NCBI GenBank assembly: GCA_964409875.1
Contig: CAYPEN010000001.1
Span: 198,637-262,636, forward strand
Reading direction: 5' to 3'
Source: an uncultured Gammaproteobacteria bacterium
Lineage (GTDB): Bacteria; Patescibacteriota; Microgenomatia; Levybacterales; GWA1-39-11
Length of the DNA stretch: 64,000 bases
Part shown: piece after piece, positions 291 to 31,334 of the stretch
Position numbering within the stretch: the stretch's first letter is position 1
How the letters are laid out: every line of letters starts with the position of its first letter
Notes under the pieces: generated by a model
Told to the model about the DNA's origin: nothing
The model's input: only the letters and a program-made list of their open reading frames with translations
Database searches by the model: none
Translations under genes and position numbers: made by a program

Positions 291-533
291 TTAAACCTTT
301 ATTTCAAAAAGTTTGAGGCGGGATTTTTGCCCGGAGATAAGTACAATAGCATTCTTTTTCACCTTGAAATATTCAGAAAGGGCTTCAATGGTCGATATAT
401 TTGCACGCCCTTCAATAGGAGGAGCGGTAACATACACATTCAATTGTCCCAAGATATCTTTTTCGACACGTTCCTTCCTGGAATTTGGATGCACAATCAC
501 ATTTAACCGCATTTTGTAATTATACAATCTCAA
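291..533 (-). CDS. DUF167 (YggU-like) small protein
   Basis: The 80-aa ORF has the ...NVYVTAPPIEGRANISTIEALSEYF...ISGQKSR pattern typical of the YggU/DUF167 family. An alternative start at the second Met is possible. Confidence 0.5.
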   Translation of the reverse strand: MRLYNYKMRLNVIVHPNSRKERVEKDILGQLNVYVTAPPIEGRANISTIEALSEYFKVKKNAIVLISGQKSRLKLFEIKV

Positions 534-591
534 AAATCGCCAGCCTCAAAAGAAATTGTTTTGAACTGAACAATATGGTAGAATCGCCTCT

Positions 592-1932
592 ATGGAAAGA
601 GACAACATACATCAGGAAAAGTTTCACGAAATTATCAACGGGTACAATATTCAGCCTCCATCCGAAGGGCTTAATAAAGCGAAAAGGTTGGGTATATTTG
701 CCGGTGCGGCTGCTACTTCTGCTATTGGCATGCTTAATTTTATAAATGGATGGTCTTCTATTTACGAGATTGATAGCTTCTACCCGGATAAGTTATGGGA
801 CAATGCAAAGACATTTGACACGGCAATGTTAGAACTAACCGGTGGAGTAATGATAACAATTGGGGGAGCACTTATTGCTTCTGTTGCAATTGATAAAGAT
901 GACAGAGAAGAATATTTTTCCCTCGAAGAATCAATACTTGCCCGTCATCCGGAATGGAAAGATGAGCCGCCAGACCCCATTGCTTTGCGTTCTGAAATAG
1001 AAACTTCGCTTCTCCTGCCACCGATAGGCGGTAAATTGAATGACTTTGATAAAAGTAAACCAATACCGCTTCCACCTGCGCTTACTGCTGAAAATTATGT
1101 GTCGGAGCTGATGAAACAAGTCAAAAAACTCCACCCTGAAAAAGGAGATAGTGAGTTTTTTGTAAGCCAGCTTGCAGTCCAGGGGAGGCGCGGAAATGAT
1201 TTCAGGTATGTTGCGCTGGCACTCCTTACCGCAAGCCCTTATGTTCAGGATTGGAATGACTATTTTTATGAAGCCAGCTGGGGAAAAGTAGGACCCCTCA
1301 TTCATGACGGAGGGCGGGTCAGTGGTAAAGTTAACCCGAAATATAAGGACGTTGTAGGGAGGACGGATTTTATCTTAAGAGTTGGTAAAGTCTGGGATCC
1401 GAATTTCGAGAGTATCATAGAAATGGCGCCGGAAGATGTGGTTAATTTACCTGTAGAGGATATAGAGAATGCACTACAAGAGCAGAAAGAACGGGAGCGG
1501 CTTTTGACTGAAGCAAAAGCATACCAAAGACTAGCCCTTGCATATGACGTAGCGTGCAGCAACAGACTGGGTTTGACTGATGATGAGGCAGATGCTTTAA
1601 GTTCTGAATGGTTCTCATTTACAGACAGCATTACAAACCTGTATGAAGAATATGGGGTAGCGGACATCCTGAATGTTAAGTGGTTCCGCAACAAACCTAC
1701 CCAACTGGGACTATGGAACAATAGATATGAGGGGAAATGGAAACCGATTAAAAAAAGTCTGAAAAAGCTTGATGCGGCAAGAATTGAAAATCCTGAAATG
1801 GTAGAGCGCTCGTATTACTTATTGAAAAATAAAGTCGCAGCAATTGATACGATTATCCAAAGCGCAGGACGGCGAATTGCTGAAGAATATTATGAAGGTC
1901 AACCGGAACAAAATGATAGGGCAGCTTTATGA
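592..1932 (+). CDS. hypothetical protein (446 aa) with two N-terminal hydrophobic segments
   Basis: Long ORF with two predicted TM-like stretches near the N-terminus. Its stop overlaps the next start (ATGA), which suggests translational coupling. Confidence 0.55.
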   Translation: MERDNIHQEKFHEIINGYNIQPPSEGLNKAKRLGIFAGAAATSAIGMLNFINGWSSIYEIDSFYPDKLWDNAKTFDTAMLELTGGVMITIGGALIASVAIDKDDREEYFSLEESILARHPEWKDEPPDPIALRSEIETSLLLPPIGGKLNDFDKSKPIPLPPALTAENYVSELMKQVKKLHPEKGDSEFFVSQLAVQGRRGNDFRYVALALLTASPYVQDWNDYFYEASWGKVGPLIHDGGRVSGKVNPKYKDVVGRTDFILRVGKVWDPNFESIIEMAPEDVVNLPVEDIENALQEQKERERLLTEAKAYQRLALAYDVACSNRLGLTDDEADALSSEWFSFTDSITNLYEEYGVADILNVKWFRNKPTQLGLWNNRYEGKWKPIKKSLKKLDAARIENPEMVERSYYLLKNKVAAIDTIIQSAGRRIAEEYYEGQPEQNDRAAL

Positions 1933-2252
1933 GTGAACGGGAGTTAGAAGCAAGTAGGCAGCATCTTGCAAGACTTGAAGAGCAAAATCAACAATCATTG
2001 TTTGTGCTTTGGAATAAAGAACAAGCTGATGGAAGGCTGGGAGAAATACTCGATCAAATTGATTCGGATGAATTAGATGAGGCAGTAGATACATCAATAA
2101 TTGCCGCACAAAAAATGGCAAAAGTTGTTGAGGAGAACAACTGGTTATTGGCATTGGGTGGGTCAGGTCTTACCAATGAAACAATCATCAAAGTTTGGGA
2201 TTTGAAATTAAAGTTAGATCAGGATATGGTTGACGAAACAGAACAGCCATAA
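1929..2252 (+). CDS. hypothetical acidic protein (107 aa)
   Basis: Start overlaps the stop of the upstream gene (ATGA). Acidic, helical composition. Confidence 0.45.
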   Translation: MSERELEASRQHLARLEEQNQQSLFVLWNKEQADGRLGEILDQIDSDELDEAVDTSIIAAQKMAKVVEENNWLLALGGSGLTNETIIKVWDLKLKLDQDMVDETEQP

Positions 2253-2313
2253 AAGCACCCACCCTCAAAAAGCCTCGCAATTGATACTGTTAGGTATTAT
2301 AATCTGTTTAAAT

Positions 2314-2997
2314 ATGCCTGAGGTTGTGCGTTTTACCCCCAAAGAAGAACAAATTAAAGCACGTCTTCGCGGTCAATGGGACTTGATGGTTCAGGGTGTG
2401 GGAGGCAGGATGTCTTTGATAAATTATGAATTCGACAGGATGGCATCTGAATATAAAAAGGGAGATGGAAGGTCATACCACAATTTGGAACATATCGCAA
2501 AAGTAGACGCAATTCTTAATAGATACCGTCATCTTGCAAGAAATTTTACCGCCTTAAAATTTGCAGGTGACGGGCATGATGTTATTTATGTTCCCGGATC
2601 CGATACCAATGAAGCAGACAGCGCAGCCTATATGAGAGTTGCCATGACAAGGCTGGGAATGCCTGAGGATACAATTGTCGAAACCGAAAGGATAATTAAT
2701 CTAACACACGACCATAAAACAACAGACAATGATGTTGACGGGAAGCTAATGATAGATGCGGATTTTGCGATATTTGCTTCCCCGGCAGATGAGTATGATG
2801 CATATGCACAGGGAATATGGCAGGAATATGTAGGGTCGGGAAGAGTCGGAGCGGATGCTTTCAGAGCTGGAAGAGGTGCACTTCTGAGAGGATGGCTAGG
2901 ACAGGAAAAACTTTTTCTGACAGACGAAATTCGCTCAGACCTGCAACCAATTGCTCATAAAAATCTGCAAAGAGAACTTGACAGATTAGCCGCATAA
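2314..2997 (+). CDS. HD-domain-like metal-dependent phosphohydrolase (putative)
   Basis: The ...RSYHNLEHIAKV...GDGHDVIYVP... His/Asp pattern resembles the HD superfamily. Start chosen at MPEVVRF because the AGCCTCAAAAA intergenic motif and promoter-like TTGATA/TATAAT lie inside the longer ORF (2230). Confidence 0.45.
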   Translation: MPEVVRFTPKEEQIKARLRGQWDLMVQGVGGRMSLINYEFDRMASEYKKGDGRSYHNLEHIAKVDAILNRYRHLARNFTALKFAGDGHDVIYVPGSDTNEADSAAYMRVAMTRLGMPEDTIVETERIINLTHDHKTTDNDVDGKLMIDADFAIFASPADEYDAYAQGIWQEYVGSGRVGADAFRAGRGALLRGWLGQEKLFLTDEIRSDLQPIAHKNLQRELDRLAA

Positions 2998-3038
2998 CCA
3001 ACAGCCTCAAAAAAATTATGATATTGCCCGCTTTGTGA

Positions 3039-3677
3039 ATGTATAATCATTTTATGCTCGTTTTTATCGATGATTCCGGAGATCCGGGATTTAAATTAGA
3101 AAAAGGTTCCTCAACTCACTTTGTAATATCTTGCATAATTTTTGATGACGATTTGGAAGCAGAAAAAACATCTTTAGCTATTAAAGAACTCAGAAGAAAA
3201 TTAAAAGTTAATGATCGATATGAATTTAAATTTAATAAAACTGATTTACGTTTTAAAAAAGTTTTTTTTGATACGATTTTTCCCTTCAAATTTAGAGTAA
3301 GGGCTATTACGGTTGATAAAACAATAATTCATAGCTCTCGTCTAAGAAATTACAAAGAAAATTTTTATAACTACATCATCATGCAGGTTTTGAAGCAAAG
3401 TAAAGGACATATCAAAAATGCAAGATTAAAATTCGATAAAAGAGGAGAAAAAACATTGAGAGATGAGTTAAGAGTATATTTAAGTCGTGAACTTGATAAT
3501 AGAAGAAATCATATTTTCAGCGATGTAAGATTTGTTGATTCTAGACAGAATACTTTAATTCAACTAGCCGATATGGTTGCCGGCTGTATAACGTCTTTTT
3601 CTAAAGGCAAAGATAGGATTTTCTATAAACAATTAAAGGATAACGGTAGAGTAGAGGATGTCTGGCAGTTTAAATAA
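3039..3677 (+). CDS. DUF3800 family protein
   Basis: N-terminal FIDDSGDPGF motif and ~210 aa length are characteristic of DUF3800. A start at MLVFIDD (3054) is possible. Confidence 0.6.
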   Translation: MYNHFMLVFIDDSGDPGFKLEKGSSTHFVISCIIFDDDLEAEKTSLAIKELRRKLKVNDRYEFKFNKTDLRFKKVFFDTIFPFKFRVRAITVDKTIIHSSRLRNYKENFYNYIIMQVLKQSKGHIKNARLKFDKRGEKTLRDELRVYLSRELDNRRNHIFSDVRFVDSRQNTLIQLADMVAGCITSFSKGKDRIFYKQLKDNGRVEDVWQFK

Positions 3678-3968
3678 TTCGACCCTGCTTTCTATCCAAA
3701 CGTAAGTTTGGAACGCGCACCATACGGTGACAATTCGAAAACAGGGTCTTTGTAAAATTATTATTACATATTGAGAAGTTCTTGTCAATTTCCCCAGCCT
3801 CAAAAAAATTCGCAAAAAACCTCGCTTTCAGGTGCAAGAAGCACTTTGTAATTGTCGTTTTCTCAAGAATTTGAGAATAGAAAGGTGTAACTGAAGGTTG
3901 TCCATGGGTGGTGCCCGCCCCCGGATAGATCCGAGGGCGGACTGGAAGACGGCTGGGAGACGGGAAAC

Positions 3969-4310
3969 CTACTTCGAGCGCAGTGCTCGTTTCGGCCTCT
4001 TTGCCTCTGACAACCTCTTGCTGACCAGTGCCACAACGGCAAGGCGGAACGCATCCTTGGCAATGACTCGCGCTAGCAAGCCATCATTGGTGCGGTCCTG
4101 CCATCGGGTGACCCCGGTCCTAATTGCCTCGGCGACAATGTGGGCCCAGTACTCCGACCTATCGTCGATACGGGACGCTTCTTCCAACTGCTTGTAGAGC
4201 AGTCGGAGGGACTCGTCGTCACTCGACTTAAGGAAGGCATCGACAAGCTTGAGAGCTTGTCTAACACTGATCGCCTCCTTCGCACGAGACAGGGCTTGGG
4301 AAACAAACAT
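3969..4310 (-). CDS. hypothetical protein encoded in a GC-rich island
   Basis: 113-aa ORF with GGAG 8 nt upstream of the ATG. Local GC is far above the surroundings (island ~3890-4400). Confidence 0.45.
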   Translation of the reverse strand: MFVSQALSRAKEAISVRQALKLVDAFLKSSDDESLRLLYKQLEEASRIDDRSEYWAHIVAEAIRTGVTRWQDRTNDGLLARVIAKDAFRLAVVALVSKRLSEAKRPKRALRSK

Positions 4311-4553
4311 AGGGCATACTCCGCTGGGGCCGGTCTAGCCAACCCTCGAAACATTTGAACCTCCTGGTTCGACGTACATCTCTATTTCAAGATGCTGCGA
4401 TCTAGACCCATTCGCGGACAATCCCTAGTCATTCCCGGTTATACATTATAGGGTGAAATTGCAGAATGTCAATACTATAAGCTTAGAAATACTATCTTGC
4501 TGTCTCAAAAAAGAGCATTGCTTTCGTTTTAAGATAGGTTTATAAATGAGTTA

Positions 4554-5216
4554 GTGAATAAAGGATTTAAAAGCTTTATTCTTGCCCTTATTCTTACCGC
4601 AGCTTTTGCTTTTCCGGTTTCTGCTGCAAGCTCCAATTTTTTATCTCAGGCAACAAAATTTTATAACAGAATTTGTAAATTGCGTTATGTTCCGGAAAAT
4701 TATGCTTTTCAGTGCTATGTATTCGATAAAGTCGGAGAGATGGATAGTTCTTTAAACTCGCTTGTTCACCGCGTTTCAACTCTTGAAACCAAAGACAATT
4801 CGCAAGACCAAAAGATACAAGGCCTTCAGGACAAAAACGCCTCGCAAGACGCGGAAATTACAGATTTGAAAACAAAAGTTTCAGAATTAGGAAATTCAAA
4901 ACCCGCAGATCCTACTGATATCATATTTTTCAATGGGAAAGTTAGCCCACAAGGTGCTGTTTCACAAGTTTTCGACGCTCAAAAATATTCAAAAGTTACA
5001 TTTACTTATCAGGGAACATCAAGTGCTTTTGTTGTTGAAGTAAGTGGTAATCAAACTGATTGGTTTACACAATATATAAGAGGAGAAGGAGAAAATAAAG
5101 CAGGTGGCTCCGTAACTTTGGATTCTGCTGGAAGATATTATAGAGTCGAAGCCGGCAGCACTACATTGCCCCCAAATGAAGTACATGAATATGCCTTAGG
5201 ACATTTCTTCAACTAG
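4554..5216 (+). CDS. secreted hypothetical protein with coiled-coil segment
   Basis: N-terminal signal peptide (…LILTAAFAFPVSAASS), then a Q/D/K-rich coiled coil and a beta-rich C-terminus. Confidence 0.55.
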   Translation: MNKGFKSFILALILTAAFAFPVSAASSNFLSQATKFYNRICKLRYVPENYAFQCYVFDKVGEMDSSLNSLVHRVSTLETKDNSQDQKIQGLQDKNASQDAEITDLKTKVSELGNSKPADPTDIIFFNGKVSPQGAVSQVFDAQKYSKVTFTYQGTSSAFVVEVSGNQTDWFTQYIRGEGENKAGGSVTLDSAGRYYRVEAGSTTLPPNEVHEYALGHFFN

Positions 5217-5280
5217 CCTCAAAAAAATGTATATTTTGTTCCATTTTGTTTCCAGATAAGCTGTGATATATTGAATTACC

Positions 5281-6108
5281 ATGAAACCGTACTTCCTCGA
5301 TAATAATTTCGCACTCTATCAAGGTGATTCTTTAGAACTTATGAAGAAATTCCCGGACAACCATTTTGATATGGTTTTTGCTGATCCCCCATACAATCTC
5401 TCAAACGGTGGGTTTACAGTCCACGCAGGAAAGCGAGTAAGTGTTAATAAAGGAAAGTGGGATGAAAGTAAAGGATTTGATGAGGATTATGAATTTCATA
5501 CAAGGTGGTTAAGTGAAGTGAGGCGTGTCTTAAAACCTAATGGTACTGTGTGGGTAAGTGGAACCTATCACTCAATTTATCAATGCGGTCATGCTCTTCA
5601 AAAAGCAGGGTACCACATTTTAAATGATATTGCATGGTTCAAGCCAAATGCATCTCCTAATTTATCTGGTAGATATTTTACGGCAAGCCATGAAACTCTC
5701 ATTTGGGCGCGACGTGACAAAAAAGCAAAGCATATTTTTAATTACAAGGCTATGAAAGAAGGAAATTGGCATTTGTCTGACTTTATAAAAAAGGCTGAAA
5801 AACAAATGAGAAGCGTTTGGGCAATAGGAACTCCAAAGCCCGAAGAAAAAAAATTCGGTAAACATCCGACGCAAAAACCCCTAGCTCTTCTTGAGAGAAT
5901 CATTCTTGCCAGTACCAATAAAGACAGCGTAATTTTGGACCCATTCACAGGCAGTTCAACAACAGGTATTGCTGCAGCAAAATTGGGGCGAAAATTTATC
6001 GGAATTGACACTGAAGAAAATTACCTTAAACTATCGATAAAACGATATAAAGATTTGGATAGCATGCTTTTTAAATATGCAAATAATAACTCGGCTGCAA
6101 GCGATTGA
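5281..6108 (+). CDS. type II DNA methyltransferase, beta class (N6-adenine or N4-cytosine), DpnA-like
   Basis: Motif IV FADPPYNL lies near the N-terminus. Motif I LDPFTGSSTTGIAA lies near the C-terminus (IV..I order, i.e. beta class). Confidence 0.85.
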   Translation: MKPYFLDNNFALYQGDSLELMKKFPDNHFDMVFADPPYNLSNGGFTVHAGKRVSVNKGKWDESKGFDEDYEFHTRWLSEVRRVLKPNGTVWVSGTYHSIYQCGHALQKAGYHILNDIAWFKPNASPNLSGRYFTASHETLIWARRDKKAKHIFNYKAMKEGNWHLSDFIKKAEKQMRSVWAIGTPKPEEKKFGKHPTQKPLALLERIILASTNKDSVILDPFTGSSTTGIAAAKLGRKFIGIDTEENYLKLSIKRYKDLDSMLFKYANNNSAASD

Positions 6109-6694
6109 GAATTTAAAAAAATATATAGGACAGGATTTGCGCACACTTGCTCTCCAATTTGGAATCACCACTTACGAAACAGGAAAACAAAATAAAGGTT
6201 GGAAGGGCCTTGTCTTAGAACGGCTTGCCGGACTTGATAACAATAATGCCAAAGCTCCAAATGGACTCTCTTACGAACTTAAAAGTGTAAGTTTTTATGA
6301 AGTTAAAGGAAATCTTGTTCCAAAAGAAACAATGGCAATTACTATGGTAAACCCGAAAGAGTTATTGGAAAAGTCTTTTTTTGAAAGTCATTGCTGGTAC
6401 AAATTAAAAGCAGTTGTTTTTTGTGCTGTACGGTGGCACGGGAAAAATGCTGAAAGTGCGGAACTAATTGATGTTACAAGCCTTGATTTTCTTGAAACTG
6501 ACACATTAATTAAAGAAATAGAAAAAGACTATGAATTCATACGAAATAAATTAAGAACTCAAGGTTTTGAAGCGCTTACAGGGAAAGATGGAAAATGGAT
6601 ACAAGCCCGAACAAAAGGTGCAGGACATGGGTCGACATCACGGGCTTTTTATGCGAGAAAAGAATTAGTTAAAAAAATCTTCGAACAAACTTAG
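6077..6694 (+). CDS. MutH/Sau3AI-family restriction endonuclease (putative GATC-specific)
   Basis: From memory it aligns with MutH at several points. Examples: KGWKGLVLERLAGL vs MutH KGWIGVLLEIWLGA; ELKSV vs ELKTI; ETMAITMV vs ETTFVCV; GKWIQARTKGAG vs GEYLQIRPKAANAK; FYARKEL vs FYLKKNF. It overlaps the end of the methyltransferase gene. Confidence 0.7.
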   Translation: MQIITRLQAIENLKKYIGQDLRTLALQFGITTYETGKQNKGWKGLVLERLAGLDNNNAKAPNGLSYELKSVSFYEVKGNLVPKETMAITMVNPKELLEKSFFESHCWYKLKAVVFCAVRWHGKNAESAELIDVTSLDFLETDTLIKEIEKDYEFIRNKLRTQGFEALTGKDGKWIQARTKGAGHGSTSRAFYARKELVKKIFEQT

Positions 6695-6732
6695 ACATTC
6701 AATTTCAGAAAAGACCGAAAACATGAGCTAAA

Positions 6733-6760
6733 TTGACTTTTTAAGGAATAGTATTACAAT
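6733..6760 (+). promoter_or_regulatory. sigma70-like promoter (TTGACT -16 nt- TACAAT) upstream of small secreted protein gene
   Basis: TTGACT at 6733-6738 and TACAAT at 6755-6760 with a 16-nt spacer, 7 nt upstream of the ATG at 6767. Confidence 0.4.
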
Positions 6761-6766
6761 CTGATT

Positions 6767-6994
6767 ATGAACTTCAAAAAAGCAATTCTCACATTCCTAG
6801 TTGGAATTTTTCTCTTTAGTGCAGTTGTAACACCTGCATTTGCTAGAGTAAGAGTTAAGGGATACACGAAGAGAAATGGAACTTATGTCGCTCCTCACTA
6901 CAGGACAAATAAAAACTCCTTAAAATATGATAATTGGTCAACAAAAGGAAATATAAATCCTTACACTGGCAAAAAAGGATACAAAAATTTCTAG
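6767..6994 (+). CDS. small secreted/membrane-anchored basic protein (75 aa)
   Basis: Signal peptide (…LFSAVVTPAFA) followed by a basic Tyr/Lys-rich tail. Confidence 0.5.
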   Translation: MNFKKAILTFLVGIFLFSAVVTPAFARVRVKGYTKRNGTYVAPHYRTNKNSLKYDNWSTKGNINPYTGKKGYKNF

Positions 6995-7077
6995 ACTAAG
7001 AAAAATAACCCCCACCTGTTTTATCTAATAGTGATTTTTCCAACTTAATATAGAAATGGCAAACAAGCAGGTATATA

Positions 7078-7524
7078 ATGCTTCCAATGAGTAAGACGCT
7101 CAAAAAACGATTCAAATTTCCCCAGGTTTTGAGTTTTGCCATGAGAGTTATCAAAAGAATTCCTCGCGTAGCGTGGGGAACGGCTGCTGTTTTTGGAGTT
7201 TTTTGCTTGGGCATTATATTTGGGTCCATTTCCCAAAGTGGATATATCAACGAGCAAGCTTCGCAAAAGCAGGGAGAGAAGAGTGCCCAGCTGACGGATG
7301 TCCTCAACAATTATCAAGGACTCTCAAAACTTTTTTACCTGCAGCAGCAAGATATGGATATCATAACCGACACATCTCAATGGTCTACAAATCCCCAAGA
7401 ACTAACTGATGCAATATCAAGCTACAAGCAAAAGAAAAACGAAATCCTTTTCCAATGGGGAAGGCTCTACGAGCTTCGCAGAAAAGCCGGATTGCCAAGC
7501 GACCCGAATTTGAAAGCAGAATAG
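7078..7524 (+). CDS. hypothetical membrane protein
   Basis: One TM segment (AAVFGVFCLGIIFGSI) and a Q-rich region. The true start may be a downstream Met. Confidence 0.4.
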   Translation: MLPMSKTLKKRFKFPQVLSFAMRVIKRIPRVAWGTAAVFGVFCLGIIFGSISQSGYINEQASQKQGEKSAQLTDVLNNYQGLSKLFYLQQQDMDIITDTSQWSTNPQELTDAISSYKQKKNEILFQWGRLYELRRKAGLPSDPNLKAE

Positions 7525-7533
7525 GAACGCATT

Positions 7534-7737
7534 ATGGATAATTTCTTTGGAAATAAAAAACAAAAGGTAGTATGGGCGGTATATGTCGTTCTTGCTGCAA
7601 TAATCTTTATTGGAATAACGACCGACTATTCGTGTTCTGTCGCCAATAAATGCGGACAGCTGATCCCAATCCTTTTCTCCCTGACCCTAATATTTACGGT
7701 CCTATCTTTACTATTCAAATCCTCAAAAAAAAGCTAA
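7534..7737 (+). CDS. small hydrophobic membrane protein (67 aa)
   Basis: Two TM-like segments. Low confidence because of size. Confidence 0.35.
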   Translation: MDNFFGNKKQKVVWAVYVVLAAIIFIGITTDYSCSVANKCGQLIPILFSLTLIFTVLSLLFKSSKKS

Positions 7738-7797
7738 ATTCTGTCGCTACGCTCAAAAAACCTCGCTTTCACGCTCAAAAAGTGGTAGAATTACTTT

Positions 7798-9252
7798 ATG
7801 TTCGAGCAAGCTTTTAAAAATATTGATGATGTTTTGTGGAAAGATTCTGGGGTTTCTAATGAGCTTGATTATGTAGAGCAAACTTCATGGATTCTTTTTC
7901 TAAAATATCTTGATGATTTAGAGGAGACGAAGGAAAAGGAGTCAAAACTTGCCGGAAGATCTTACAAATCAATACTTGAAGACAAATATAAATGGGATAC
8001 ATGGGCTGCGCCAAAAGACTCTAGTGGAAAAATAGATCACCGAATAGCTCTTTCTGGGGAAGATCTCACCGATTTCGTAAATTTAGAATTATTTCCATAT
8101 CTTAAAAAATTTAAGGCAGATGCTAAAAGTCCAGACTCCATTGAATATAAAATAGGTGAGATTTTTAGCGAGTTAAAAAATAAAATTCATAGCGGATATA
8201 CCCTTCGTGAAATATTAAATATCGTAGAGACCCTTCATTTCAGGTCACAAAAAGAAAAGCATGAGCTATCTCATCTATATGAATCAAAAATCAAAAACAT
8301 GGGCAATGCGGGGAGAAATGGGGGGGAGTATTACACACCGCGCCCTCTAATACGAGCTATTGTCAAAGTTGTAAATCCAAAGATAGGAGAGACGGTCTAT
8401 GACGGAGCTGTAGGATCGGCGGGATTTTTGTGTGAGGCATTTGAATACTTAAAAGAAAGCAAGCAACTTTCTACAGAAGATGTAGAAATTCTGCAGAAAA
8501 AAACATTTTATGGGAAGGAGAAAAAGTCTCTTGCTTACATAATAGGTGTAATGAACATGATTCTTCATGGAATAGAAGCTCCAAACATTAAGCACACTAA
8601 TACACTTTCAGAAAATATAATGGATTTTCAGGAAAAAGACCGTTTCAACGTAGTGCTTGCCAATCCGCCTTTTGGTGGTAAGGAACGTTCCGAAGTGCAA
8701 CAAAACTTCCCGATAAAAACAGGCGAAACCGCTTCACTCTTTTTGCAGCACTTTATTAAAATTTTGAAAGCAGGTGGCAAGGCAGGTGTAGTAATTAAAA
8801 ACACTTTTTTGAGCAATACCGACAATGCCACGGTTGCCATACGCAAAACCTTATTGGAAAACTGCAACCTGCACACCGTGTTGGATTTGCCGGGTGGCGC
8901 TTTTACGGGTGCTGGGGTAAAAACAGTCATACTGCTTTTTGAGAAAGGCAAATCGACCCAGAAGGTTTGGTATTACCAGTTGAACCCTGGCCGCAATTTA
9001 GGCAAGACCAATCCATTGAATGATAAAGACTTGGCAGAGTTTGTAGAATTACAAAAAACCTTTGCTGACAGCAAAAATTCTTGGACGGTGAATGTAAAAG
9101 ACATTGACCAAAACACTTTTGATTTGAGTGTAAAAAACCCGAATAAAAAAGAAGAAGTTACGTTACGCCAACCGAAAGATATTGTGGAAGAAATGAAAGC
9201 ATTGGACGAAGAAAATACGAAAATCATAAACTTAATTTTGGAATTGATATGA
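7798..9252 (+). CDS. hsdM: type I restriction-modification methyltransferase subunit HsdM
   Basis: Carries the VLANPPFGG catalytic motif and the AdoMet motif DGAVGSAGFL. Its stop overlaps the hsdS start (ATGA at 9249-9252). Confidence 0.9.
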   Translation: MFEQAFKNIDDVLWKDSGVSNELDYVEQTSWILFLKYLDDLEETKEKESKLAGRSYKSILEDKYKWDTWAAPKDSSGKIDHRIALSGEDLTDFVNLELFPYLKKFKADAKSPDSIEYKIGEIFSELKNKIHSGYTLREILNIVETLHFRSQKEKHELSHLYESKIKNMGNAGRNGGEYYTPRPLIRAIVKVVNPKIGETVYDGAVGSAGFLCEAFEYLKESKQLSTEDVEILQKKTFYGKEKKSLAYIIGVMNMILHGIEAPNIKHTNTLSENIMDFQEKDRFNVVLANPPFGGKERSEVQQNFPIKTGETASLFLQHFIKILKAGGKAGVVIKNTFLSNTDNATVAIRKTLLENCNLHTVLDLPGGAFTGAGVKTVILLFEKGKSTQKVWYYQLNPGRNLGKTNPLNDKDLAEFVELQKTFADSKNSWTVNVKDIDQNTFDLSVKNPNKKEEVTLRQPKDIVEEMKALDEENTKIINLILELI

Positions 9253-10367
9253 AGCAAGGTTGGGAAATAAAGAAGTTGGGTGAAGTTTCAGAAATTCTGA
9301 ATGGTGGAACACCGAAAACAAATATTGCAGAATATTGGGACGATGATATTCATTGGATTACCCCTGCTGATTTAGGAAAGTTAACTAAACCAACAGTAGC
9401 AGATACTCCAAGAAAAATTTCAAGTTTAGGCTTAGAAAAATCGTCTGCAAAATTATTTCCTGAAAATTCAGTAATACTTTCAACGAGAGCTCCAATTGGA
9501 CATTTGGCAATCAATGTAGTTCCTATGAGCACTAATCAAGGGTGTCGTGGAATTGTGCCAAGTAAAAAACTTGATACTTGGTATTTATATTACTTCCTTA
9601 AAAAGAATGTAGAGTTACTTGATAGTTTGGGAACAGGAGCAACCTTTAAAGAGCTTTCAACAAAAGCACTTTCAGGGGTTGAGATCCCCCTTCCCCCTCT
9701 CCCCGAACAACAACGCATTGTTTCTATATTAGATGAAGCCTTTGCCGCCATCACATCGGCAAAAGCAAATGTACAAAAAAACCTCAACAACGCCAAAGAA
9801 CTTTTTGAAAGCTACTTGCAGGGAGTGTTTGAGAATAAGGGTGATGGTTGGGAAGAGAAAAGATTTGATGAAGTCTGTGTTTTGCAAAGGGGATTTGACC
9901 TACCAACTCATTCAAGATTTGAAGGAGATTATCCTTTGGTAAGTTCTAATGGAATTACAGACAATATAAATCAATGGAAAGTTAAAGCGCCAGGTGTTGT
10001 TACAGGTCGTTCAGGCACAATTGGCAATGTTCATTTTATTGAGGAAGATTTTTGGCCACTCAACACAGCACTTTTCATTAAAGATTTTCACGGAAATGAT
10101 GAACGCTTTATTTATTATTTCTTAACGTCTTTTGATTTGAGTAGATATAGCTCAGGAGCAGGTGTACCGACTTTAAATAGAAATAATGTTCACAGCGTAA
10201 GAGTTTGTGTTCCAAAATCAAAAGAAGAACAACAAATCATTGTCAGTCAATTAGATGCCCTGCGAGCGGAAACACAAAAGTTGGAAGCGGTATATCAAAA
10301 GAAAATAGCTGATTTGGAAGAACTGAAAAAATCCATTTTACATAAAGCATTTTCTGGAGAATTATAA
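9249..10367 (+). CDS. hsdS: type I restriction-modification specificity subunit HsdS
   Basis: Conserved central HsdS region (…LPPLPEQQRIVSILDEAFAAI…) and C-terminal coiled-coil (…QKKIADLEELKKSILHKAFSGEL). Sits between hsdM and hsdR. Confidence 0.85.
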   Translation: MKQGWEIKKLGEVSEILNGGTPKTNIAEYWDDDIHWITPADLGKLTKPTVADTPRKISSLGLEKSSAKLFPENSVILSTRAPIGHLAINVVPMSTNQGCRGIVPSKKLDTWYLYYFLKKNVELLDSLGTGATFKELSTKALSGVEIPLPPLPEQQRIVSILDEAFAAITSAKANVQKNLNNAKELFESYLQGVFENKGDGWEEKRFDEVCVLQRGFDLPTHSRFEGDYPLVSSNGITDNINQWKVKAPGVVTGRSGTIGNVHFIEEDFWPLNTALFIKDFHGNDERFIYYFLTSFDLSRYSSGAGVPTLNRNNVHSVRVCVPKSKEEQQIIVSQLDALRAETQKLEAVYQKKIADLEELKKSILHKAFSGEL

Positions 10368-10369
10368 GG

Positions 10370-10425
10370 TTTGTATACATTCATTGACTAAATGTATACA
10401 AACTGGTATACTTTGTATACATTCA
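10370..10425 (+). promoter_or_regulatory. promoter with triple TGTATACA-palindrome operator upstream of fic/hsdR
   Basis: TTGACT (10384-10389), a 17-nt spacer, then TATACT (10407-10412). Three copies of TTTGTATACATTCA (direct, inverted, direct) overlap the -35 to +1 region. Confidence 0.45.
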
Positions 10426-10445
10426 CAAAAAGATGTAAACAAACT

Positions 10446-11585
10446 ATGGATATCAACATTGGAACACTGAAAGAACAAAAAGAGGGGTTTAAGGCTTTTA
10501 TTCCATATACATTTCCTCCCGAAAAAGGTTTTGAATTTACTCCAAGAATAATTAAAAAAGATAATGAAGCGACACGACTTTTAGGTAAGCTTGATGGTAT
10601 CACCAAGTTATTACCTGATGCTGATTTCTTCTTGCTCATGTATCTGCGCAAAGATGCTGCTTCTTCAAGTCAAATAGAGGGAACTATGGCTACCATGGTA
10701 GATGCGATTGAGGCAGAGGTAAACGTAAGCACTAATATCCCGGAGGATGTAGATGACATTTTGCATTACATACAAGCATTAAATTACGGTATAAAACGCG
10801 TTACTTCTGATGATTTTCCAATAAATCTTCGATTTGTTAGAGAACTTCACTTGAAACTTATGAAAGGCGCGCGCGCTACTCATTTTAGTGATCCTGGGGA
10901 ATTTAGAAAAAGTCAGAACTGGATTCAAGGAACAAGGCCCGACAATGCACATTTTGTGCCTCCTCCGGTTGATGAAATGCATCGTGCGCTGAATGAGTTA
11001 GAGGCCTTTATACATGCTGAAGACACAACTCCAACTGTTATTAAAGCGGGGATTATTCATTCACAGTTTGAAACGATTCATCCTTTTCTTGATGGGAATG
11101 GAAGAACAGGTAGAATGTTGCTAACATTTTATCTTTGGAAGGAAGGATATTTAGAAAAGCCAGTACTTTTCTTATCATCTTACTTTAAAAAGCATCAAAA
11201 GCTTTATTACGAGAGGCTTGAAGGATACCATGAGGGCAAAATTGATAAATGGGTGGAATTTTTTCTCGATGGAGTTATTGAGATTGCAACTGAGGCAATC
11301 GGCATAGTTGATAAGATTACTGAATTAAGAGAGCGAGATATTTTAAAAATTCAGAGACTAGGTAAAAGGGCCTCTGAAAGCGCGGCTATGATACTGCCTA
11401 AGTTATATGGGCAACCAATCGTGAATGTCTCGACAGTGCGTGACTGGACAGGATTTACTAGAGCTGGTGCGCAACAGGTTATTGACCGTTTTATCGAAAT
11501 GGGAATACTTTCTCCAAAGGATAAGGATGTGAAGTATGGACAGTCATATATCTATAATGAATATATTCAAATATTTTCAAATTAG
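10446..11585 (+). CDS. fic: Fic family protein (AMPylation/Fido domain)
   Basis: Canonical Fic motif HPFLDGNGRTGR. Start chosen at MDINIG, downstream of the promoter. It is embedded between hsdS and hsdR. Confidence 0.85.
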   Translation: MDINIGTLKEQKEGFKAFIPYTFPPEKGFEFTPRIIKKDNEATRLLGKLDGITKLLPDADFFLLMYLRKDAASSSQIEGTMATMVDAIEAEVNVSTNIPEDVDDILHYIQALNYGIKRVTSDDFPINLRFVRELHLKLMKGARATHFSDPGEFRKSQNWIQGTRPDNAHFVPPPVDEMHRALNELEAFIHAEDTTPTVIKAGIIHSQFETIHPFLDGNGRTGRMLLTFYLWKEGYLEKPVLFLSSYFKKHQKLYYERLEGYHEGKIDKWVEFFLDGVIEIATEAIGIVDKITELRERDILKIQRLGKRASESAAMILPKLYGQPIVNVSTVRDWTGFTRAGAQQVIDRFIEMGILSPKDKDVKYGQSYIYNEYIQIFSN

Positions 11586-11587
11586 CT

Positions 11588-13897
11588 ATGAATGAATCAG
11601 AGACAAGAGCAGAATATATAGATCCAAAATTAAAGGAAAGCGGTTGGGGAGAGGTAGAGGGATCAAAAGTATTGCGAGAACACAGAATTACTGATGGAAG
11701 AATTCTCGTTGGTGGAGCACGCTCGAAGCCCGAAATCGCGGATTATGTTCTCGTGTATAAAAATCAAAAACTAGCCGTCATTGAAGCAAAGCAAATAGAT
11801 CTACCAGCAACGGAAGGTGTAGCGCAGGCAAAAGCATACGCTCATAAGATGCAACTTGAATATACCTATTCCACAAACGGTAAAGAAATTTACGAGATGA
11901 ACATGAAGACAGGGAAGGAATGGTATCTTGAGCGTTTTCCTACTCCTGATGAGTTATGGAATGCTTATTACTTTGACCAAAATGACTGGAAAGAAAAGTT
12001 TGCATCAATTCCAAGCGAAGGCGAATTAGGGAGAAGATATTATCAAGAAACAGCGATTAAAAATGTGCTTGATGCTATTGCGGAAGAAAAAAATAGAGTA
12101 CTTCTTACAATGGCAACCGGAACAGGTAAAACTGCCGTAGCCTTTCAAATAGCTTGGAAACTATATCAAGCTAGATGGAATTTGCAAAGAGACGGAAATC
12201 GTAGGCCAAGAATTTTGTTTTTGGCTGATAGAAATATACTAGCCGATCAAGCATTTAATGCTTTTAGTGCGTTTTCAGAAGATGCATTAGTAAGAATAAA
12301 TCCTCTCGATATCAGGAAGAAGGGATCAGTCCCAACGAATGGAGCAGTGTTCTTTACGATATTTCAAACTTTTATGAGCGGACCTCAAAACACACCTTAT
12401 TTTGGTGAGTATCCACCTGATTTTTTTGATTTCATCATCATAGATGAATGTCATAGGGGAGGAGCAAATGATGAGGGCAACTGGAGAGGAATTTTGGAGT
12501 ACTTTTCACCCGCTGTGCAGCTTGGGCTTACAGCTACTCCGAAAAGAAAAGATAATGTCGATACTTATAGATATTTTGGAGAGCCTGTTTATACATATTC
12601 ACTAAAAGAAGGAATAGGTGATGGATTTCTGACACCATTTAAGGTTAAAAGGATTCAAACAACTCTTGATGAATACATATATACATCGGATGACGAGGTG
12701 GTAGAGGGGGAGATAGAAATGGGCAAGGTCTATACCGAGCCAGATTTTAATAGAATAATCGAGATAAAAGAGAGGGAGGCTAAAAGAGTCAAATTGATGT
12801 TAGAAAATATAAATCAAACAGAAAAAACTATAGTCTTTTGTGCCAATCAAGAGCATGCGTTAGCAGTCAGAGATCTTATAAATCAAATGAATGATGTGAA
12901 GGATCCATTTTATTGTGTAAGGGTTACTGCAAATGATGGGTTTCGAGGTGAGCAATATTTGAGAGAATTTCAGGATAACGAAAAAACTATTCCAACTATT
13001 CTAACTACTTCTCAAAAACTTTCCACTGGTGTTGATGCGAGAAATATCCGAAATATTGTTCTTATGCGACCAATTAATAATATGATTGAATTCAAACAAA
13101 TAATTGGACGGGGCACAAGGCTATTTGACGGTAAAGAATATTTTACTATTATTGATTTTGTAGATGCTTATAAAAATTTTCTTGACCCTGAATGGGACGG
13201 AGAACCTGTTGATCCTGAACCTCCCAGACCTCCTGGTCCTACACCGCTACCACCTAGGCCATGTCCGGTTTGTGGGCAAGCTCCATGTATCTGTGACAAA
13301 GTAGAACCAAAACAGAAAATTAAAATAAAACTTCGTGACGGAAAAGAGCGCGAAATTCAACACATGATTTCCACGTCTTATTGGGGAGCTGATGGTAAGC
13401 CTATGTCTTCAGAAGAATTTATTTACAATTTGTACGGAATATTACCTGACTTTTTTAAAGATGAAGAAGAATTGAGGAAAATATGGTCAAATCCAACAAC
13501 ACGAAGTAAGTTTCTCGAGCGATTTTTTGATATGGGAATTGATATTGAGCAAATCGAAAACCTTTCAAAAATTGTAAGCGGTGAGGATAGTGATTTTTAT
13601 GATGTCTTGCTATTTTTAGCCTACCATAAACCATTAATTACCCGTAAAAAACGAGTTGAAAAAAATAAAAGCGAGATTTTGGAAGGGTTAAATGAAAATG
13701 AGTCAGAATTCCTTAATTTTGTGTTGAGAAAATATGAAGATGATGGGTTTGAGGAACTATCTGAAGAAAAATTGCCAGTTCTTCTAAACTTAAAATATCA
13801 AGCTATTGCGGATGCAGAACAAAAATTGGGAGATGTAGAAAAAATAAGAAATACTTTTTTTGAATTTCAAAAAAAATTATATTCAAACATTCAATAG
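11588..13897 (+). CDS. hsdR: type I restriction enzyme R subunit HsdR
   Basis: HSDR_N-like N-terminus (…RAEYIDPKLKESGW…), Walker A MATGTGKT, and DEAD-like IIIDECHRG. The C-terminal EcoEI_R_C-like helical region is preceded by a Pro-rich linker and a CPVCGQAPCIC zinc-knuckle-like motif. Confidence 0.85.
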   Translation: MNESETRAEYIDPKLKESGWGEVEGSKVLREHRITDGRILVGGARSKPEIADYVLVYKNQKLAVIEAKQIDLPATEGVAQAKAYAHKMQLEYTYSTNGKEIYEMNMKTGKEWYLERFPTPDELWNAYYFDQNDWKEKFASIPSEGELGRRYYQETAIKNVLDAIAEEKNRVLLTMATGTGKTAVAFQIAWKLYQARWNLQRDGNRRPRILFLADRNILADQAFNAFSAFSEDALVRINPLDIRKKGSVPTNGAVFFTIFQTFMSGPQNTPYFGEYPPDFFDFIIIDECHRGGANDEGNWRGILEYFSPAVQLGLTATPKRKDNVDTYRYFGEPVYTYSLKEGIGDGFLTPFKVKRIQTTLDEYIYTSDDEVVEGEIEMGKVYTEPDFNRIIEIKEREAKRVKLMLENINQTEKTIVFCANQEHALAVRDLINQMNDVKDPFYCVRVTANDGFRGEQYLREFQDNEKTIPTILTTSQKLSTGVDARNIRNIVLMRPINNMIEFKQIIGRGTRLFDGKEYFTIIDFVDAYKNFLDPEWDGEPVDPEPPRPPGPTPLPPRPCPVCGQAPCICDKVEPKQKIKIKLRDGKEREIQHMISTSYWGADGKPMSSEEFIYNLYGILPDFFKDEEELRKIWSNPTTRSKFLERFFDMGIDIEQIENLSKIVSGEDSDFYDVLLFLAYHKPLITRKKRVEKNKSEILEGLNENESEFLNFVLRKYEDDGFEELSEEKLPVLLNLKYQAIADAEQKLGDVEKIRNTFFEFQKKLYSNIQ

Positions 13898-13971
13898 CCC
13901 TACTATACTAAAATGGTGTGGAATTGGCCTCAATTGCTTTTGTTTTGTACCAGTAGTATACTTCACCTCAA

Positions 13972-14898
13972 ATGGCGTTGTTTAGAATAAATGGGAAAAA
14001 ATTAAGCCCTGTAAAGGAAATGGGGTTTGATTCTCAATTTAAAAAAGAGAAGGAACTCCAAAATTTTACAGAAAACAATCTTCAAGAACTTTTTGGTCTT
14101 GAATATATTGCTACTGAATTTAATATCGAGACTTTTTGGCTTGACTCTCTGGCATTTGATCCTGCTATCAATTCATTTGTAATCATAGAGTACAAAAAAG
14201 TCGAAAATTTCTCGCTTATGGATCAGGGGCAAACGTATTTGAATCTTGTGTTGGATCACAAGGCTGACGTTTTGCTGGAATATATTACAAAAACAGGAAA
14301 GACAATTGATAAAAAGAGTGTCGATTGGGGACAGACCAGAGTCATGTTCATTGGTCCAAAATTTAATACCTATCAAAAGAGAGCGTTAAGTCCAAATTTA
14401 CCATTTGAATTGTGGGAAGTTGGAATTTATGAGGGGGGACTTATAGAATATGATCAGATAATTCCCGTGGGTGGAGACAAAAAAGTTGAAAAGAGAACTG
14501 TTTCTCTTTCTGGTTCTGCGAGTAAGGAAATTAAAGTATATGCAGTAGAGGATCATCTAAAAAAATCCAACCAGAAAACACAAGATCTTTTTCAGACTAT
14601 CAGAGAGGAAATTTTTTCTTTGAATAGCAAAATTCAGGAAAAACCAGTTGGGAACTACATAGGTTATAAAGTAAATTGGTATAATTTTGCCTCGATCCAT
14701 TTTTACAAAGATTGGTTAAAAATTCATGTTAGAAAGGAAAAGTTGCAAAGTGATAAGGATGGTAGACTGACAAAAATACCCTCATCATATGGATGGGGTA
14801 AAACGCCGCTTTGGTGGATGGATGTTAAAAATGAAAAGGATGTGGAGTATGTATTACCAATAATTAAGGAGTCCTATGATGCATCGCCTGATAAGTAA
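13972..14898 (+). CDS. PD-(D/E)XK-like nuclease-fold protein with uncharacterised C-terminal domain (putative)
   Basis: N-terminal …FDPAINSFVIIEYKK… fits a D…(D/E)xK restriction-endonuclease-like signature. It lies immediately downstream of hsdR on the same strand. Confidence 0.4.
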   Translation: MALFRINGKKLSPVKEMGFDSQFKKEKELQNFTENNLQELFGLEYIATEFNIETFWLDSLAFDPAINSFVIIEYKKVENFSLMDQGQTYLNLVLDHKADVLLEYITKTGKTIDKKSVDWGQTRVMFIGPKFNTYQKRALSPNLPFELWEVGIYEGGLIEYDQIIPVGGDKKVEKRTVSLSGSASKEIKVYAVEDHLKKSNQKTQDLFQTIREEIFSLNSKIQEKPVGNYIGYKVNWYNFASIHFYKDWLKIHVRKEKLQSDKDGRLTKIPSSYGWGKTPLWWMDVKNEKDVEYVLPIIKESYDASPDK

Positions 14899-14904
14899 AT
14901 AAAT

Positions 14905-15663
14905 ATGTCTCAGTACTATAATCCCATCAGAACACGGAATTTGTTTGATCCCAGCTCTTCCGAGCCGTTTCGACTGAGCCGTTCAAAAATCGACCTTTTT
15001 GTAAAGTGTCCCAGGTGCTTTTATATGGATAGGAGGTTGGGAATAGGGCAGCCGCCAGGATATCCTTTTTCTTTAAATTCTGCAGTCGATGCACTTCTCA
15101 AAAAAGAGTTTGATATGCACCGCGCAAACGGCACGCGGCATCCATTGTGTGAAAAGTATGGAATCAACGCAATTCCCTATGCTCACGAGAAAATTGATGA
15201 GTGGAGAGACTCGTTACGACGGGGAATTACTGTCCCAATTGACGGCACTTCGGTAGTTGTAACAGGAGGAGTAGATGACGTTTGGCATGAAAATGGCGAG
15301 CTTATTATCGTTGATTACAAAGCAACGTCAAAAAAAGAAGAAGTAACACTGGATGCAGAGTGGCAAGATGGGTACAAAAGGCAGATGGAAATCTATCAGT
15401 GGCTGTTCCGAAAGAATGGTTTTAACGTTTCTAAAACAGGATATTTTGTGTACTGTAATGGAGACACCGATAAAGAGGCTTTTGATGGGAAGCTGGAGTT
15501 TGAAATAAAACTAATTCCCTATGTTGGTGATGACTCATGGGTCGAGGGAAAAATTTTGGAAGCAATCGAATATCTAAAAAGTGATACCATCCCTGAGAGC
15601 GGGGCGGATTGTGACTTTTGCGCGTATAGAAAAGCCGCGGCAAGTGCAGAATCCAGGGAGTAG
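14905..15663 (+). CDS. Cas4-like / RecB-family PD-(D/E)XK nuclease with Fe-S cysteine motifs
   Basis: N-terminal CPRC. RecB motifs GGVDDVW and IIVDYKATSKK. QxxxY motif QMEIYQWLF. C-terminal CDFC, giving a 4-Cys cluster. It starts 6 nt after the upstream gene. Confidence 0.6.
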   Translation: MSQYYNPIRTRNLFDPSSSEPFRLSRSKIDLFVKCPRCFYMDRRLGIGQPPGYPFSLNSAVDALLKKEFDMHRANGTRHPLCEKYGINAIPYAHEKIDEWRDSLRRGITVPIDGTSVVVTGGVDDVWHENGELIIVDYKATSKKEEVTLDAEWQDGYKRQMEIYQWLFRKNGFNVSKTGYFVYCNGDTDKEAFDGKLEFEIKLIPYVGDDSWVEGKILEAIEYLKSDTIPESGADCDFCAYRKAAASAESRE

Positions 15664-15808: not shown

Positions 15809-16171
15809 TTACTGGCGCGACGTCTGGGTCCTGCTTTCGGACCTTTTCCTCGCTAGCCATTCGGCTATCTGCTCACCTGTGAACGTGAAGCCCGCGTCGT
15901 GCGGGAATCCGGCGATGACCTCCTCTTTGAAATACCGCACATACGGATACAGTTGATCCCTAAGTACATCTGGATTCACACCCGGTGCAAGACCGAGGTG
16001 ATCGCAGAGGATTGAAAGTGCCAGGGCGTAAGGCCCGGCTCCTCCATATCCCCACTCGAACCCGTTATCCGGGTCGCCGTACTGGTCGTAGTTGAAGAGT
16101 TTTTGGCCATTGACCTTGACTTCATCAACCCAGGCACCGTCGCGGGTGCCCACGTAAATCTTACCGGACAA
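15809..16171 (-). CDS. hypothetical protein in GC-rich island (TTG start)
   Basis: 120-aa ORF with AGGAG 6 nt upstream of a TTG start. GC content is far above genome background (island ~15750-16180). Confidence 0.45.
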   Translation of the reverse strand: MSGKIYVGTRDGAWVDEVKVNGQKLFNYDQYGDPDNGFEWGYGGAGPYALALSILCDHLGLAPGVNPDVLRDQLYPYVRYFKEEVIAGFPHDAGFTFTGEQIAEWLARKRSESRTQTSRQ

Positions 16172-30263: not shown

Positions 30264-30341
30264 AGCAACCTCTTGATTGTAAGAAGCTTGGTGTGTATTA
30301 TGTATGCATCCTGTAATAGTTCTATTAGAAAGGAGATTGCT

Positions 30342-30872: not shown

Positions 30873-30874
30873 AA

Positions 30875-31018: not shown

Positions 31019-31083
31019 ATTGTTCACCTCCTTCTTTTATCCTCATATAAATTCGTACAGGGATTTTGTCCCTGCACCAGGTT

Positions 31084-31233: not shown

Positions 31234-31334
31234 TTGCCATATTTTTTCACCCCCTTTTTATACCTGCTTTATAAATTCTGTATAAACGGGAGGAGACTTT
31301 GTATACTTTCTCCCATTTATACGGTTTGAGGAAA

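Follow-up and report, generated by a model that had tools for sequence, protein, structure and literature searches.

We studied a short motif that recurs between the genes of a defence island in a stretch of 64,000 nucleotides (hereafter the window; positions 198,637 to 262,636 of contig CAYPEN010000001.1, assembly GCA_964409875.1) from a member of Candidatus Levybacteria/Levyibacteriota, which belong to the Microgenomates group within the Candidate Phyla Radiation (CPR); this placement rests on ProRS homologues as named by NCBI. The motif has 15 bases, CCAGCCTCAAAAAAA, and its consensus is written CCAGCCTCA(A/G)AAAAA. On balance, sequence comparison leads us to read it as the upstream part (about -51 to -37) of promoters that would head separately transcribed cassettes in a hypervariable island. 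The motif occurs non-randomly and with a strand bias, its spacing to the predicted -10 box is fixed, it is conserved before unrelated genes and it is devoid of secondary structure. The island (555–15616, + strand) lies between a DUF167 gene (291–512, minus strand) and a DUF6166 gene (15809–16171, minus strand), and the spacers that hold copies are designated IG1 to IG7 below.

The copies listed in an earlier note on this DNA are all real, to within 1–2 nt: AGCCTCAAAAG at 542–552, CCTCAAAAAGCCTCGC at 2263–2278, AGCCTCAAAAAAA at 3003–3015, CAGCCTCAAAAAAA at 3795–3808, TAGCCTCAAAAAAA at 5213–5226 and TCCTCAAAAAAAA at 7720–7732, while others, at 528–536, 4503–4512 and 7773–7781, had been overlooked. 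The longer unit reported there in two places is likewise present, as an 18-mer, CAAAAAACCTCGCTTTCA, exact at 3813–3830 and 7754–7771, that extends to 29 nt with 86% identity (3813–3841 vs. 7754–7782). In a repeat search over the first 16 kb, the motif sequences came out as the top direct-repeat families (D1, D3 and D5). With a genome of about 42% GC, rich in A-runs, and coding copies of CTCAAAAA elsewhere in the window, one might attribute such recurrence to A-rich composition alone, but chance is a virtually untenable explanation. Exact and one-mismatch searches combined with shuffles yielded six window copies of AGCCTCAAAA against 0.29 expected, none of 100 dinucleotide-preserving shuffles reaching six, and two copies of the 18-mer against 0.02 expected, which effectively refutes it; moreover, 810 kb of control sequence around hsdM homologues hold just two matches to AGCCTCAAAA, and the motif is conserved in relatives. 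The copies are also biased in strand, in intergenic location and in position: 11 of the 29 window matches to CTCAAAAA fall within the first 8 kb, all on the + strand (binomial P ~5e-4), and the intergenic island copies, which lie between 528 and 7782, are all on the + strand and co-oriented with the gene downstream. The uniform distribution, inside genes included, that the earlier note had set against its own proposal is thus not what we found, the density of the relaxed motif on the + strand being 5.7-fold higher in intergenic than in coding sequence (Fisher P ~2e-9). Finally, the 15 nt are asymmetric, without dyad symmetry, and RNA folds of both strands are no more stable than those of shuffles (z = +0.4 to +1.6), in agreement with the earlier statement that there is no hairpin and hence no classic terminator.

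Of the three roles that the note put forward with no preference, namely promoter element, regulator binding site, and recombination or cassette-boundary sequence, the first is well supported: in the window as well as in relatives, a fixed 33–37 bp separates the motif from the -10 box of leaderless promoters. Measured from the CTC of the motif to the -10 hexamer, the distance is 34 bp in IG1, IG2 and IG7, 36 bp in IG3 and IG4b and 37 bp in IG5. On the related contig L120, the CTC at 1235, 1879, 4799 and 5307 is each time 33 bp upstream of TGnTAnAAT, and the spacing is 34 bp at L124 7281, L125 1572, L126 1600 and L118-upstream 809 (L118 being the Logan assembly that corresponds to the window shifted by 2194 nt). 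Once orthologous copies were collapsed, TAnAAT was found 31–38 nt downstream of 10 of the 21 independent intergenic copies, compared with 3.9% of random intergenic positions in the same sequences (binomial P ~2e-9). These -10 boxes stand 6–10 nt before ATG or GTG; most motif promoters have an extended -10 and a poor -35, with TGn in 10 out of 12 by reading of the sequences. With the -10 hexamer placed at -12 to -7, CCAGCCTC covers about -51 to -44, and the A-run covers about -43 to -37, a position that it has in IG1, IG2, IG3, IG4b, IG5, IG7 and at least eight promoters of relatives. In orthologous spacers, conservation begins at the motif and continues through the -10. Among most cassettes, the sequence of the interval between the two is unrelated.

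Several observations weigh against this reading. Other spacings exist: it is 49 bp before the methyltransferase gene in three genomes (IG6, the spacing exception in the window), and L121 shows 25 and 43 bp, L126 22 bp and L120 77 bp. Four copies have no same-strand gene (IG4a/b, L125 2312, L125 3594 and L126 5333). No helix-turn-helix or other DNA-binding Pfam domain was found in the open reading frames (ORFs) of the island, a regulator encoded elsewhere being possible. Moreover, the 48 kb of core sequence contain good leaderless promoters without the motif, which implies that this organism does not use it as a general polymerase signal; in the window, promoters of the core genome show TTGACA and no motif, and no promoter-associated copy was found in these remaining 48 kb. 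Finally, an upstream promoter (UP) element would leave the conserved CCAGCCTC half unexplained, which suggests that this half is contacted by a lineage-specific protein or conserved for another reason. As for the leaderless pattern itself (TAnAAT 6–10 nt before ATG or GTG, without Shine-Dalgarno sequence), it is seen window-wide at many genes, e.g., at 579, 6755, 17946, 19223 (minus), 40376, 42651, 51262 and 58978, and it indicates that leaderless transcription is probably widespread in the source CPR genome.

The closest known counterpart of the motif in a promoter is the UP element, whose proximal subsite reportedly has the consensus AAAAAARNR at -46 to -38; Gram-positive sigma-A promoters are likewise said to carry A-tracts near -43 and a TGn-extended -10. 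The motif takes the position of such an element (an A/T tract from about -60 to -38, phased with the core promoter): its run of 6–8 A ends just upstream of the -35 position, in one orientation and in fixed phase with the -10, before extended -10 promoters with a weak -35. Compared over its whole consensus, however, only the A-run fits the proximal subsite, whereas the equally conserved and GC-rich CCAGCCTC, directly 5' of it, belongs to no UP consensus; furthermore, instead of occurring at strong promoters generally, the motif is confined to a single variable locus within a narrow clade. We infer promoter activity itself, an UP-like mechanism and the binding of a factor, if any. The promoters would be of the extended -10 type (TGnTAnAAT), mostly lacking a good -35, and transcription would start at or next to the start codon to give leaderless mRNAs. 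Standing in the place of the proximal UP subsite or of the Gram-positive upstream A-tracts, the A-run would help to recruit RNA polymerase through contact with the C-terminal domain of its alpha subunit or through DNA bending, and the CCAGCCTC half could be read by a lineage-specific factor or by a polymerase contact.

Other oriented or repeated promoter sites offer partial parallels. The MotA box of phage T4, centred at -30, resembles the motif in being oriented, locally repeated and set at a constant distance from a sigma-70-type -10, where it stands in for a good -35; in contrast, our motif lies at -51 to -37, and the island has neither phage nor activator genes nor any match to the phage collection in blastn. 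The RptR operator comprises three direct repeats located within the promoter of a type I restriction-modification (RM) system, in a defence island of enteropathogenic Escherichia coli that combines type I RM and DarTG, RptR being a repressor whose site is the palindrome TAGCTA and whose gene is adjacent (PMC12255303). IG7 similarly has three copies of CTCAAAAA before a type I RM operon, and the idea of control at the level of the island is shared. Unlike the RptR site, however, the one described here is asymmetric and precedes many unrelated cassettes, and no regulator gene was recognised in the island. An operator of the RptR or C-protein type would come with a dyad-symmetric or repeated site and, in the island, a gene for a cognate small DNA-binding protein; repeats are present, but no DNA-binding Pfam domain was found in the island. 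In the literature that we searched, no such motif is described in CPR, nor is the combination of a 15-nt asymmetric motif (GC-rich part plus A-run), a single hypervariable CPR defence locus, a fixed promoter position and cassette junctions, without recombinase or hairpin. Upstream promoter elements and cassette arrays are each already known as such.

The earlier note had placed the copies immediately after or near stop codons, which holds for many spacers (0–12 nt after the stop) but is not a defining property. At 542, the copy is not behind a stop codon at all, since it lies in a divergent spacer beside the start of the minus-strand DUF167 gene, and at 7720 it is inside the 3' end of a 67-aa ORF. 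In spacers of only 55–65 nt, an element at -45 must fall 0–12 nt past the preceding stop, and therefore looks like a mark of gene boundaries. Longer spacers separate the two situations: the copy at L121 8465 follows the stop by about 260 nt and is separated from the -10 by 43 nt; for the copy at L120 4799, the two distances are 195 nt and 33 nt. The motif thus mostly keeps with the promoter and not with the stop codon. A termination or 3'-end signal of the upstream gene, to which both the proximity to stop codons and the few copies not followed by a same-strand gene could point, is on these grounds very improbable: besides mostly tracking the promoter in long spacers, the motif has neither a stem-loop nor a T-run on the transcribed strand, its folds are no better than those of shuffles, and in the divergent spacers IG1 and L125 3594 there is no same-strand gene upstream to terminate.

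Related genomes were reached in two ways. The 446-aa protein of the island has an exact copy in public data and a homologue of 84% identity on L120, while L121, L122 (JGI 3300013121; GCA_041910135.1), L124, L125 and L126 were reached via the methyltransferase cluster and the homologues of the HD protein. Five related contigs (L120, L121, L124, L125 and L126) carry the same motif at the same locus with different cassettes behind it, bordered by DUF167 on one side and, where the contig extends that far, by the DUF6166 gene on the other; the locus spans 15 kb in the window vs. 5.4 kb in L121, with different contents. The same 15-mer is kept in all five, although their genes share only 74–88% DNA identity and the genes downstream are unrelated, which argues for selection on the motif. 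This bears on another alternative, namely that the copies are relics of duplicated promoter modules and that their CCAGCCTC half adds no function to that of the A-tract. Duplication would account for the CCTCGC extension, which is confined to IG2, IG4b and IG7b of the source genome (the longer unit containing it was sought in relatives and is absent), for the 86% identity of IG4b and IG7b over 29 nt, and for the long identical stretch shared by two paralogous promoters upstream of the window. We nevertheless regard it as improbable, given the conservation of the 15-mer across the five contigs and the unrelated sequences that separate motif and -10 in most cassettes. The DUF167 (yggU-like)–DUF6166 locus is a hotspot at which gene content varies within this Levybacteria clade; it includes type I, type II, MmeI-like and other RM systems as well as DUF3800, DUF4230, NucS-like and PD-(D/E)XK proteins. 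A pair of genes for 148-aa and 67-aa products is found there at varying positions, twice in L121.

Outside this neighbourhood, the motif was looked for in several data sets. A metagenome scan for HsdM gave 80 loci with hsdM homologues (72–78% identity, many phyla), none of which has the motif upstream of hsdM; in the 810 kb around these homologues, nearly all matches to the motif pattern are coding occurrences of CCTCAAAAAA within hsdM and none is associated with a promoter, from which it follows that the motif does not travel with type I RM genes. More distant Levybacteria contigs with a homologue of the HD protein (66–67% identity) lack it, and the core flanks of L121, L124 and L130 show no copy in promoter context. 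Across 185,579 species genomes, the 18-mer was matched 37 times, always singly and in unrelated phyla, which is the chance level by our own estimate, and no genome has multiple copies. A metagenome scan with the 446-aa island protein retrieved no relatives, and in blastn of the island against a plasmid collection only the conserved 5' coding region of hsdM was matched. Altogether, the absences from hsdM loci, distant Levybacteria and the core indicate that the core motif is specific to a narrow clade and to this variable neighbourhood. It is also unlike dispersed repeats (DNA uptake sequences and uptake signal sequences, DUS/USS, or repetitive extragenic palindromes, REP), which have hundreds of copies genome-wide, as no copy in promoter context was found from 16 to 64 kb of the window. 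In that part, matches to CTCAAAAA (as everywhere beyond the first 8 kb) are coding and without promoter context. Two further exact copies of AGCCTCAAAA were noted outside the island: one at 30820–30829 (+; CCAGCCTCAAAATAAC), which is part of a poorly coding stretch (30264–31628) of unusual AT skew and is followed after 47 nt by a TAAAAT, and one at 32207–32216 (minus), which is antisense within a subtilase gene and abuts a TATAAT.

The earlier note had also considered a recombination or cassette-boundary sequence, and this idea agrees with the data but is unproven: blocks of homology do begin and end at the motif, but no recombinase, hairpin or dyad symmetry was found. In pairwise blastn and alignments, homology out of DUF167 stops exactly at the 3' edge of the proximal copy, past which three different cassettes follow: the 446-aa gene (source genome and L120), an acetyltransferase (L121) or a 110-aa gene (L124 and L126). 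The methyltransferase block begins at the 5' edge of its copy, behind three different genes, and in the spacer of the 234-aa gene, conservation sets in only at the motif. Copies on the + strand flank two minus-strand cassettes, namely the GC-rich insert of the window (copies at 3795/3811 and 4503) and L125 2322–3563 (copies at 2312 and 3594), while the 29-nt direct repeat (3813–3841 and 7754–7782) brackets a block of 3.9 kb. On the minus strand, the proximal copy offers a T-run and TTGAGG 17–19 bp upstream of the DUF167 TATAAT in four genomes, so that the anchor copy doubles as the -35 region of DUF167. These facts could mean that the motif is primarily an att-like core site or a microhomology for the insertion, deletion or exchange of cassettes beside DUF167; each insertion would then duplicate it, building a motif-cassette-motif-cassette array, and the promoter spacing would be secondary, cassettes with a -10 at the right distance being those that get expressed. 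The varying content of one fixed locus across six contigs (the source and the five relatives) and the restriction of the motif to this locus and its left flank, in a narrow clade, agree with such a role.

We nonetheless hold it to be the less likely primary function. No integrase, recombinase or transposase domain was detected by Pfam in the 67 window ORFs scanned, nor among the genes called on L120, L121, L124, L125 and L126. The motif is missing from several junctions (6695–6766 in the window, L121 12452 and the one before the methyltransferase gene of L125), and the highly significant fixed spacing to the -10 is not predicted. Moreover, the boundary facts are not proof, first because a motif present in every spacer enters BLAST blocks from both sides whatever the mechanism, and second because selection for intact promoters would also place the surviving breakpoints at the motif. 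A role at junctions is thus possible, as it fits the boundary data, but unproven. It would be compatible with the promoter reading, much as attI and Pc coexist in integrons. On the promoter reading itself, every unit starts with the motif, which is thereby also the point where cassettes join, and 15 nt of identity at these joints may aid exchange.

Compared with known cassette systems, the island resembles integron arrays in its co-oriented, unrelated and strain-variable cassettes beside a fixed anchor gene, and in the short conserved sequence found at most junctions, where homology blocks break. It differs from them in that neither IntI nor another recombinase was found nearby, that each cassette has its own promoter and that some junctions lack the motif; furthermore, attC sites are imperfect hairpins of 57–141 nt, whereas the motif is 15 nt, unstructured and non-palindromic. 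In tandem accretion of integrative elements at one att site, or in the Acinetobacter plasmid modules known as pdif (XerC/D), acquired modules at a single hotspot are similarly separated by a short, directly repeated core, yet those repeats have recombinase-binding arms with dyad symmetry (28-bp dif) or are tRNA-gene sites, none of which is seen here. A Xer/dif site has 28 bp with two 11-bp arms of partial dyad symmetry and is usually at the replication terminus, unlike the asymmetric 15-nt motif; besides, the cumulative GC skew rises monotonically across the window, so that no terminus is located there. A bolder version, which we consider rather unlikely, would make the motif the crossover site of a hairpin-less, integron-like cassette capture in CPR that inserts promoter-bearing defence cassettes beside DUF167. 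An unlinked or unrecognised recombinase, or host repair acting on the 15-nt identity, would duplicate CCAGCCTCAAAAAAA at each event, and the site would have been co-opted from the -35 and T-tract of DUF167, which it would still provide while serving as upstream element of the cassette promoters.

To our knowledge, almost nothing is known experimentally of CPR promoters, gene regulation or the build-up of defence islands. The locus offers a compact and testable case, in which a 15-nt lineage-specific element at a fixed place in extended -10 leaderless promoters heads unrelated defence cassettes (among them type I and type II RM and DUF3800) and coincides with the points at which gene content differs among relatives. 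Were it a promoter module only, it would provide a first sequence-based entry point to the transcription signals of CPR and to how island genes are co-expressed; if it turned out to mediate cassette exchange as well, it would reveal a new recombinase-independent or cryptic route of defence-island turnover.

The copies are described here from left to right, all on the + strand. IG1 separates the divergent DUF167 (minus, ATG at 512) and 446-aa genes and holds a weak copy, TCTCAAAAA (528–536), and a strong one, CAGCCTCAAAAGAA (541–554), whose CTC at 545 is 34 bp upstream of TGGTAGAAT (-10 at 579–584; ATG at 592); on the minus strand, this copy gives a T-run and TTGAGG 19 bp upstream of the DUF167 TATAAT, and its right edge (554) is the end of homology with L121 and L124. 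In IG2, CCCACCCTCAAAAAGCCTCGCAA (2258–2280, family D1) has its CTC at 2264, 34 bp upstream of a TATAAT (2298–2303), and the ATG of the 227-aa HD-like protein is at 2314. IG3 contains CCAACAGCCTCAAAAAAAT (2998–3016, family D3), 6 nt past a stop codon, with its CTC at 3006, 36 bp upstream of TGTATAAT (-10 at 3042–3047), and the ATG of the DUF3800 protein at 3054. Families D1, D3 and D5 all occur in IG4, an orphan module that faces the GC-rich insert without a + strand gene downstream: a strong copy, TCCCCAGCCTCAAAAAAAT (IG4a, 3791–3809), is directly followed on its 3' side by the long unit CGCAAAAAACCTCGCTTTCAGGTGCAAGAAG (IG4b, 3811–3841), in which the motif takes the variant form CGCAAAAAA and its CGC is 36 bp from a -10-like TGTAAT (3847–3852). 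IG5, the right flank of the GC-rich minus-strand cassette, has a degenerate copy, TGTCTCAAAAAAG (4501–4513), with its CTC at 4504, 37 bp upstream of TATAAA (4541–4546), which is preceded by a -35 (TTGCTT) at a 17-bp spacer and followed by the GTG (4554) of the 220-aa protein. In IG6, TAGCCTCAAAAAAAT (5213–5227) overlaps the stop codon that ends the 220-aa gene; TATATT (5267–5272) lies 49 bp downstream, the ATG of the N4/N6 methyltransferase is at 5281, and the copy marks the left edge of a 2.5-kb block common to the window, L121 and L124. The motif-like TCCTCAAAAAAAA at 7720–7732 encodes the C-terminus SSKKS* of the 67-aa ORF and forms the right-hand limit of the block that the window shares with L121, where TCTTCAAAGAAAC stands in this place. 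Finally, the long unit of IG7, GCTCAAAAAACCTCGCTTTCACGCTCAAAAAG (7751–7782, family D5), with its third copy inside at 7773–7781, has a CTC at 7752, 34 bp upstream of TGGTAGAAT (-10 at 7786–7791), and precedes hsdM (ATG at 7798), the first gene of the hsdM-hsdS-Fic-hsdR operon.

Other candidate functions were tried and rejected. An antisense promoter, with the reverse complement TTGAGG as -35, is true only for DUF167, the other copies having no minus-strand -10 at the right distance. The scan for intrinsic terminators found 3 against 5.8 expected by shuffle, with one weak minus-strand match at the motif (3839–3820), and attC-like core sites (RYYYAAC/GTTRRRY) have no partner inverse core in the spacers.

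Regarding gene content, the island comprises an orphan pair of 446-aa and 107-aa proteins, the HD-like 227-aa protein, DUF3800, the GC-rich insert with a minus-strand 113-aa ORF, the 220-aa protein, the N4/N6 methyltransferase with a MutH-like endonuclease, three small ORFs, hsdM-hsdS-Fic-hsdR, DUF5655 and a PD-(D/E)XK nuclease. Beyond the island, the window consists of ordinary chromosome (dnaX, ProRS, HisRS, YchF, YbeY, PRPP synthetase and HtrA). The GC-rich insert (about 3900–4440; about 55–60% GC in a surround of 35–40%) looks like a recent foreign insertion between two motif copies. Its minus-strand ORF of 113 aa (3969–4310) has no Pfam match and a perfect consensus promoter, TTGACA-16-TATAAT (4472–4445, minus), and is overlapped by a 93-aa ORF (4073–4354) with a strong AGGAGG and a low-complexity product. 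The motif itself has no match in Rfam, the sole match of the scan being a neighbouring DUF3800-IX RNA (3677–3748, minus; gathering-level, 64.4 bits, E = 9e-12), which directly follows the DUF3800 gene and lies on the opposite strand. On the minus strand, a near-consensus promoter (3788–3760; TTGACA-17-AATAAT, with TG) ends about 12 nt before the 5' end of this RNA, which supports the minus-strand orientation and independent transcription of that orphan RNA motif. Just to the right of the island, a Doc/Fic-family toxin (127 aa) and an upstream MazE/AbrB-type antitoxin (78 aa) are encoded at 16399–17015 (minus); a second, larger Fic protein is encoded between hsdS and hsdR, at 10392–11585.

In the core, a second family of intergenic motifs, with inverted arms like AATAGTTAATAGTCAA ... 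TTAGCTATTAACTATT about 35–60 nt apart, is found in three spacers (44020–44110, 50075–50150 and 59995–60095), and could be an operator or a small palindromic repeat element. Other spacers (48455–48550, 61725–61818 and 62300–62420) are made of AT-rich TAAAATT / GAATTT / TAGAATT repeats and contain several -10-like boxes that overlap one another; these three spacers precede PRPP synthetase and small genes.

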